Source: a virus (lineage: Duplodnaviria; Heunggongvirae; Uroviricota; Caudoviricetes). From it: a stretch of 64,000 nucleotides of DNA. Positions within the stretch are counted from its first letter, which is position 1. Every line of letters begins with the position of its first letter. The position numbers were made by a program, and so were the translations under genes. The stretch lies in the IMG/VR virus record IMGVR_UViG_3300031758_000005. One strand, written 5' to 3'. This document shows, one piece after another, positions 38,872-38,944 of this stretch. The notes below the pieces were generated by a model that was not told the DNA's origin, ran no database searches, and worked only from the letters and a program-made list of their open reading frames with translations.

Positions 38872-38944
38872 GCGGGTCAAGTGTAAAGAGGGCACGCTGG
38901 TCTACCAGATCAGAAGGCGAAATGCAAAGTTCGGACCCGCTCCA
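38872..38944 (+). tRNA. Non-canonical tRNA-Gly(ACC)
   Basis: GCGGGTC/GACCCGC with U73-CCA (Gly identity); CTGGT-CT ACC AG-ATCAG; shortened T arm CGAA-ATGCAAAG-TTCG. Confidence 0.7.

Follow-up and report, generated by a model that had tools for sequence, protein, structure and literature searches.

The locus considered here raises the question of what a phage could gain from a glycine tRNA with a wobble base that is otherwise hardly used for this amino acid. In the window, which is the whole stretch of 64,000 nucleotides (nt) analysed from IMG/VR record IMGVR_UViG_3300031758_000005, a tRNA-Gly-like gene with the anticodon ACC and a shortened T arm lies at 38872-38944 on the + strand (the ACC gene). 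Natural tRNA-Gly(ACC) has been described as nearly absent across all organisms (PMC6720975). The ACC gene is almost certainly real, structured, derived from tRNA-Gly and under purifying selection. Concerning its function, the reading favoured here, at a probability of about 0.45, is that of a functional, divergent phage tRNA-Gly that is charged with glycine and decodes GGU with a remodelled elbow. A selectively kept natural tRNA-Gly(ACC) occupies a place in the anticodon table that has been reported as almost empty, and it provides a natural test of the avoidance of A34 for glycine.

Structure and conservation of the ACC gene

The gene and its parts are the following.

38872..38944, + strand: tRNA-Gly(ACC)-like gene with encoded CCA, 73 nt; cloverleaf as minimum-free-energy (MFE) fold, found by ARAGORN in mitochondrial mode, 76 homologous copies with compensatory changes
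38872..38878, + strand: 5' strand of the acceptor stem, GCGGGUC, pairing with 38934-38940 (GACCCGC)
38881..38895, + strand: D arm, stem GUGU/GCAC and 7-nt loop AAAGAGG; stem invariant, last loop base G or A among copies
38897..38913, + strand: anticodon arm, stem of 5 base pairs (bp) and 7-nt loop CUACCAG; anticodon ACC at 38904-38906, loop invariant in 76/76 copies
38918..38933, + strand: T arm, 4-bp stem CGAA/UUCG and 8-nt loop AUGCAAAG; UGC replaces U-Psi-C, invariant in 75/76 copies
38941..38944, + strand: discriminator U73 and encoded CCA, invariant

The acceptor pairs G1-C72, C2-G71 and G3-C70, together with U73, C35 and C36, make the identity set of glycyl-tRNA synthetase (GlyRS) complete. 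The cloverleaf has its four arms, a 7-bp acceptor, a 5-bp anticodon stem with a 7-nt loop, U33, a purine at 37, the discriminator and CCA. What is absent is the core of a canonical elongator, namely U8 (position 8 is A, at 38879), G18G19 (not reliable, since the second D-loop G is replaced by A in most copies), a 5-bp T stem closed by G53-C61 and a 7-nt loop of the form U54-U55-C56-R-A58. An A.G stands where G53-C61 belongs and position 55 is G. Two of the four T-stem pairs are A-U, and the T loop lacks UUC and includes U-G-C-A-A. The variable loop is AAGG and positions 15 and 48 are both purines. The glycine identity elements, the ACC anticodon and the deviant T stem and loop had already been described in an earlier note on this DNA, and both the sequence and the MFE fold agree with that description. 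Its statement that A34 in bacteria is essentially limited to tRNA-Arg(ACG) and a few tRNA-Leu(AAG) holds as well.

The MFE structure given by RNAfold for the 73-mer is exactly the cloverleaf (-25.6 kcal/mol, z -2.36), and 2 of 200 shuffled sequences were as stable. ARAGORN in its metazoan-mitochondrial mode, which accepts aberrant arms, reports 'mtRNA-Gly(acc), 73 bases' at 38872-38944. Standard ARAGORN recovered eight other tRNAs in the window and missed this gene at every threshold down to -ps70. With the Rfam family RF00005, whose threshold is 29 bits, no match to the gene was obtained on relaxing the cut-off to E<=10, whereas the remaining tRNA genes in the cluster reach 31-69 bits. The rebuilt elbow thus hides the gene from the standard finders, and censuses of phage tRNAs miss such genes. 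The codon-supplement and counter-defence arguments that have been built on these censuses likewise overlook its class.

Homologues were gathered by exact-pattern scans and by searching with the neighbouring protein. In total, 76 copies with 12 different sequences were obtained from contigs of freshwater phages and metagenomes, some of the counted loci being one contig fetched twice. They come from 18 IMG/VR contigs and 54 metagenome stretches, nearly all of them from lakes and rivers. On the structure given above, 99.6% of the alignment cells are paired and four pairs change on both sides. Neither the paired fraction nor the covariation score of the real alignment was attained in any of 500 column shuffles; sliding the 3' partners lowers the pairing to 20-46%. 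In the acceptor stem, pairs 4-69 and 5-68 switch jointly from G-C to A-U in 4 of the 12 distinct sequences, with pairs 1 to 3 retained; in a single sequence out of the 12, U-G is found at pair 2-71, and the other glycine identity elements never vary. The anticodon stem occurs as CUGGU/AUCAG, UUAGU/ACUAA or UUGGU/AUCAA, where pairs 27-43 (C-G/U-A) and 29-41 (G-C/A-U) compensate fully and pair 30-40 alternates between G-U and G-C.

Outside the stems, variation is confined to base 9 (A or G) and one D-loop base (G or A), and the T arm is fixed apart from a single stem base that differs in one copy. Search patterns in which the anticodon loop or the T arm was left free returned no variant loops or arms. 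The flanks diverge directly after the terminal A of CCA. Copies of the ACC gene are on average 92% identical to the one in the window, versus 79-99.8% for the neighbouring bona fide tRNAs and 72% for the adjacent virion protein gene.

These data also bear on the idea of a decaying tRNA-Gly pseudogene or of an assembly or base-call artefact, which would fit the rejection of the gene by standard tRNA finders. Nevertheless, the same ACC and T arm recur in the 76 copies, from many independent samples, and the substitutions are either compensatory or located at three tolerant sites. The surrounding 901-base stretch is also supported by 14 DNA sequencing runs, at least 84% of the sampled words being present in each of them. 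Since A34 is identical in every copy and these runs agree, an assembly or base-call error is excluded, and the concern of the earlier note that reads might reveal GCC or UCC instead can be set aside. Decay or artefact, taken together, is thus a highly improbable explanation.

Beyond these contigs, no copy of the gene turned up when 185,579 genomes of bacteria and archaea were scanned with an exact pattern. Among cultured phages, megablast with the cluster gave no relatives and blastn matched only the neighbouring tRNA-Met; sequence searches with the 73-mer alone returned chance-level matches (E 2-7).

Descent from tRNA-Gly and a second deviant paralogue

The origin of the gene can be read from a complete relative of 296 kb (G001), which has two tRNA clusters. 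The first contains canonical tRNA-Gly(GCC) and tRNA-Gly(UCC), tRNA-Arg(ACG) and transfer-messenger RNA. The second is a cassette of the window type, with tRNAs for Arg (UCU), Lys (UUU), Glu (UUC), Met, Ile (UAU), Leu (CAA) and Leu (UAA) plus the ACC gene. The acceptor sequence of the ACC gene, GCGGGU/ACCCGC followed by U73 and CCA, is identical to that of both canonical tRNA-Gly of this phage, with which it also has C35, C36, A37 and the D-stem bases in common. It differs from them in A34 and the short T stem, and in the lack of U8, G53-C61 and UUC; neither their GGUUCGAUUCC T arm nor their GG-containing D loop is present. The shared acceptor and D-stem bases therefore identify the gene as a paralogue of tRNA-Gly whose core has been rebuilt, as opposed to the remnant of a different RNA.

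Furthermore, 54 of 75 relatives carry a second gene at a distance of 8-14 nt downstream of the ACC gene; it was detected with a covariance model of the latter (35-38 bits, E ~1e-8) and is likewise missed by standard ARAGORN. It is absent from the window, where a tRNA-Ile(UAU) stands instead. Examples among these covariance-model matches are the following.

L017:6690-6764: second paralogue
L021:13531-13606: second paralogue
L004:8437-8516, - strand: second paralogue
L047:7208-7281, - strand: second paralogue

This second paralogue retains G1-C72, C2-G71, G3-C70, U73, CCA, the GUGU/GCAC D stem and the NCC-A core of the anticodon loop. Its acceptor pairs 4 to 6 covary (GCGAUAU, GCGGUGU, GCGGAAU or GCGAUGU, with the 3' strand matching each), and its T loop is UGCAAGU, UGUAAGU or an enlarged loop of 13 nt. 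Both genes therefore form a small family of tRNA-Gly-derived phage genes with G at position 55. The anticodon loop, on the other hand, separates them: the 7-nt loop CUACCAG of the ACC gene is frozen, whereas that of the second paralogue drifts by lineage between 6 nt (AUUCCA), 7 nt (CUUCCAG, in one contig) and 8 nt (CCUUCCAG). Ordinary triplet decoding by the second paralogue is implausible in most lineages.

Decoding of GGU and competing explanations

A role of the ACC gene as a GGU decoder is favoured over a non-ribosomal carrier and a decoy because its anticodon arm is orthodox and frozen, because it matches the codon usage of the phage and because of the logic of the cassette. The two competing explanations, taken together, nevertheless keep a considerable minority share of the probability. 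Regarding codon usage, the 1245 glycine codons in the open reading frames (ORFs) of the window are GGT in 53% of cases, GGA in 30%, GGC in 13% and GGG in 3%. The Gly-rich ORFs at 47-62 kb, two of them with collagen repeats, use GGT most; in one of 1382 amino acids with 16% Gly, GGT accounts for 121 of 221 glycine codons. Every other tRNA of the cassette reads a favoured A/U-ending phage codon (AAA 73%, GAA 87%, AGA 61%, TTA, TTG, ATA).

In the proposed mechanism, an ordinary phage tRNA-Gly paralogue would have acquired A at position 34 and a rebuilt D/T-loop elbow, its anticodon arm with U33 and A37 remaining orthodox. Transcription would take place together with the rest of the tRNA cluster, and processing would follow that of the adjacent tRNAs. 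The host GlyRS would then glycylate the RNA, as the identity set suggests, and after delivery to the ribosome an unmodified A34 would form a Watson-Crick pair with the U of GGU, the commonest glycine codon of the phage and the dominant one in its collagen-like structural genes. More speculatively, the remodelled elbow and A34 could make the RNA unlike host tRNA-Gly for host enzymes that target tRNAs.

Several known facts are compatible with these steps. Mycoplasma tRNA-Thr AGU, mitochondrial tRNA-Arg ACG and an E. coli tRNA-Gly ACC obtained by engineering have an unmodified A34 together with a normal T arm; they have in common with the ACC gene the U33-A34 context and the position of A34 in a box of four codons, in which it does not matter which third base is read. 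Boren et al. reportedly found in 1993 that unmodified A34 reads four-codon boxes in the Mycoplasma and the engineered E. coli tRNAs. As for the elbow, tRNA-Pyl decodes with bacterial EF-Tu and ribosomes although it lacks G18G19 and T-Psi-C. In a ribosomal assay with tRNA mimics, ACC on GGU reached 55% of wild type versus 65% for GCC on GGU (PMC6720975). Concerning aminoacylation, G1-C72, a second acceptor pair with C2, U73, C35 and C36 are the determinants of GlyRS that suffice to charge even deviant staphylococcal isoacceptors (PMC7826273). If decoding is true, the ACC gene shows how much of the tRNA core bacterial translation can spare.

Modification of A34 to inosine by TadA was also considered. 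Substrates of TadA need the loop context U-A-C-G, and the loop around A34 is U-A-C-C. Four metatranscriptome runs were compared with 37900-39300. No A>G change at 38904 (A34) appeared among the rows listed for three RNA-library contig sets, these being low-depth contigs that perhaps represent precursor or DNA. In RNA-library contigs the ACC gene has a depth of 5-16, like the flanking tRNAs, which could again correspond to precursor or contaminating DNA, and the contigs over it carry the same compensatory anticodon-stem variant as the DNA. One RNA contig stops exactly at CCA; strains diverge at that point, so that a break in the de Bruijn graph is expected there.

Several observations weigh against decoding. 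A8, the lost D-loop G, G55, the missing G53-C61 and the 4-bp T stem with its 8-nt loop mean that most of the universal tertiary contacts of tRNA are changed together, and the lack of a match to RF00005 or with standard ARAGORN is due to the change of these nucleotides. A possible pair between C32 and G38 would narrow the anticodon loop. G55 and A51-U63 are common to staphylococcal tRNA-Gly that bind neither EF-Tu nor ribosomes (PMC7826273). In G001 a GGU reader would be redundant because this phage encodes canonical tRNA-Gly(GCC) and tRNA-Gly(UCC). Decoding would not be what holds the family together either, because the loop of the neighbouring paralogue, in the 54 of 75 relatives that have it, is mostly not of 7 nt. 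Finally, neither a class-II synthetase core nor an EF-Tu-like GTPase, which might have fitted the machinery to so unusual a tRNA, was found in three relatives (G001, G002 and G003), apart from one sub-threshold match of 15 bits for the latter. As no Fem transferase was found in these three either, any charging and delivery must use host enzymes.

The resemblance to staphylococci suggests a different fate for the glycylated RNA. In these bacteria, the TTC of non-proteinogenic (NP) tRNA-Gly is replaced by TGC or TGT, and their binding to EF-Tu and to ribosomes is poor (PMC7826273), which confirms the earlier note on the replacement by UGC and the weak binding of EF-Tu. The staphylococcal species (NP1-NP3; S. 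epidermidis tRNA-Gly Ia/Ib) have in common with the ACC gene the glycine identity set and a G in place of the uridine of Psi55 (PMC7826273), to which a weak D/T-loop elbow, an altered D loop, A51-U63 and the existence of extra genes beside canonical tRNA-Gly can be added. By analogy, the ACC gene, together with its paralogue in relatives, could encode a non-proteinogenic glycyl carrier, which would be charged by GlyRS, kept off EF-Tu and the ribosome by its T arm, and used to pass glycine to a non-ribosomal aminoacyl-tRNA-dependent transferase. The change of UUC to UGC in its T loop, and to UGC or UGU in the second paralogue, is the signature reported for NP1-3. The short T stem contains A51-U63 and A52-U62, and glycine needs a tight-binding tRNA body for EF-Tu. 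A carrier would also agree with the strict retention of the glycine acceptor identity and CCA while the anticodon loop of the paralogue drifts in length, and with the coexistence of canonical tRNA-Gly genes in G001.

However, the analogy does not extend to a known acceptor. The FemAB family (PF02388) was not found in G001, which is 100% complete, nor in G002 or G003, and it is absent among the Pfam matches listed for the ORFs of the window (for its first half, the best 25 of 47 families). The comparison with peptidoglycan bridges made in the earlier note thus finds no support, and no acceptor pathway can be named. Of the weak EF-Tu pairs of the NP tRNAs (A49-U65, U50-A64 and A51-U63), only the third is shared, since the ACC gene has C49-G65 and G50-C64. 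The A at position 34 and the frozen 7-nt loop would be left unexplained. A carrier function is therefore regarded as unlikely. The ACC gene resembles the staphylococcal NP lineage in G55 and the weak elbow but does not belong to it: its anticodon is ACC instead of UCC, its T arm has 4 bp and 8 nt instead of 5 bp and 7 nt, position 8 is A instead of U, and it is encoded by uncultured freshwater phages in which no Fem transferase was found. The NP lineage has been described as confined to staphylococci (PMC7826273), so the likeness would be convergent.

Another possibility is that the RNA works as a decoy or sponge. Host enzymes directed at tRNA-Gly, for example toxSAS pyrophosphokinases that read the acceptor stem or GNAT acetyltransferases of Gly-tRNA-Gly, would then encounter its glycine-type acceptor stem, its CCA and its NCC loop; alternatively, the RNA would titrate GlyRS. 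In both cases the working pool of tRNA-Gly would be protected during infection. FaRel2 selects tRNA-Gly by G1-C72, C2-G71, G4-C69 and Pu5-Py68 (PMC11559606). The window copy has all four, although one of these determinants is lost in the lineage with A4-U69. The GNAT toxins AtaT2 and AtaT are reported to act on Gly-tRNA-Gly (PMC7470980 and PMC7595197), which GNAT toxins acetylate. Moreover, the canonical genes are accompanied by a tandem of two deviant Gly-like genes, and phage tRNAs are an established means of counter-defence. They have been proposed to escape host tRNases via altered loops (PMC10264068), and in mycobacteriophage C1, T5 and others the members of the cassettes differ from the host at the sites read by tRNases (PMC10264068; PMC11555353). 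Those are point changes in the anticodon loops of canonical tRNAs, whereas the ACC gene has a rebuilt elbow and a changed wobble base. A counter-defence reading of the gene, with which the Rnl1- and Rnl2-type RNA ligases of relatives would also agree, would be reasonable. Nevertheless, the case for a decoy is purely circumstantial, an orthodox and invariant anticodon loop is not required for it, and no high abundance is seen in standard RNA-seq contigs, although such libraries capture tRNAs poorly. A decoy is considered improbable to the same degree as a carrier.

Both explanations can be combined into the proposal that giant freshwater phages encode a non-proteinogenic tRNA-Gly family, formed by the ACC gene and its tandem UCC-type paralogue, whose members would be charged by GlyRS, withheld from EF-Tu and the ribosome, and employed as glycyl donors or toxin decoys. 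This is possible but rather doubtful. If true, this would be the first example of such a class from a virus, and the first from any source but staphylococci. Should the RNA turn out to act away from the ribosome or as a decoy, it would extend the idea of the non-proteogenic tRNA to viruses and would represent a new move in the tRNA arms race between phages and hosts. The earlier note had offered GGU decoding for the Gly-rich fibre genes on the one hand and a non-ribosomal donor or decoy on the other; both sides of that alternative have evidence in their favour, and GGU decoding is the one preferred here.

The tRNA cluster, the upstream RNA element and neighbouring genes

The window is phage-like (~33% GC, virion protein and homing-endonuclease families), and the ACC gene lies within a tRNA cluster, directly downstream of another non-coding element.

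35242..39149, + strand: phage tRNA cluster with UCU-like, Lys UUU, Glu UUC, Met, Ile UAU (two), Leu CAA, Leu UAA and Met tRNA genes and two homing-endonuclease ORFs
38570..38864, + strand: structured RNA element of ~295 nt, a separate module forming the spacer between tRNA-Leu(UAA) and the ACC gene; non-coding, conserved

For the upstream element, the consensus fold predicts 77 pairs, of which 14 show compensation, and a terminal helix is formed between its two ends. It was assigned to the + strand because of its many G-U pairs. In three RNA runs from three studies its depth is 200-2400 versus 5-17 in the flanks. It assembles as a closed cycle with the head-to-tail joints 38863->38570 and 38864->38573, and all DNA loci that contain the complete element have just one copy of it. 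The element is thus probably an abundant circular RNA, or at least one that is joined head to tail. Its sole likeness in Rfam, the manA RNA (RF01745), was rejected as an identity at 14 bits against a threshold of 55.

The vicinity of this element suggests one more explanation for the ACC gene, as a processing handle whose tRNA-like fold would serve solely to guide the cuts of RNases P and Z in the polycistronic transcript of the tRNAs, for example to release the abundant upstream RNA. The gene starts 8 nt downstream of the 3' junction of that RNA and its elbow is degenerate, as a handle would permit. However, the element is absent from some relatives, and there the ACC gene is equally conserved directly behind tRNA-Leu(UAA). 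The junction of the RNA does not coincide with the 5' end of the tRNA, and the glycine identity set, U73, CCA and the frozen anticodon loop would not be needed. A handle is accordingly a far less credible explanation than a carrier or a decoy, and GGU decoding remains the preferred reading.

Other members of the cluster are also unusual. A tRNA-like gene at 35242-35319 (+) scores 31.4 bits with Rfam and is missed by ARAGORN; its acceptor is GCUCCGG/CCGGAGC, UCU lies in a loop, and the D region is odd and carries a long insertion. The cassettes of relatives have a normal 76-nt tRNA-Arg(UCU). In G001, ARAGORN reads a tRNA with a four-base anticodon (ctct) at L085:11502-11577 (L085 being G001:189500-202500). 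Two tRNAs of 93-94 nt at 38097-38190 and 38958-39050 (+) have the anticodon UAU (Ile, AUA) and a long extra arm, which is unusual for tRNA-Ile in both anticodon and type-II-like shape; the second reaches only 39 bits.

Regarding the neighbouring genes, a SpoU-family RNA 2'-O-methyltransferase (33075-33614, +; Pfam E 4e-22) is encoded 1.6 kb upstream of the tRNA cluster. It was considered as a modifier of position 34, for which no claim is possible, as no NCBIfam equivalog (TrmH, TrmL, TrmJ, RlmB) came near its cut-off. The relatives carry Rnl1- and Rnl2-type RNA ligases, and no match to RtcB was found in G001, G002 or G003. A GNAT ORF of 99 amino acids is located at 43559-43855. The large Gly-rich ORFs at 47126-59361 (+) contain 9-16% Gly, with collagen-repeat and concanavalin-like lectin domains. 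Upstream of them are two 2OG-Fe(II) oxygenase ORFs (42144-43552, +), whose products, by analogy with prolyl hydroxylases, may act on the collagen-like proteins.
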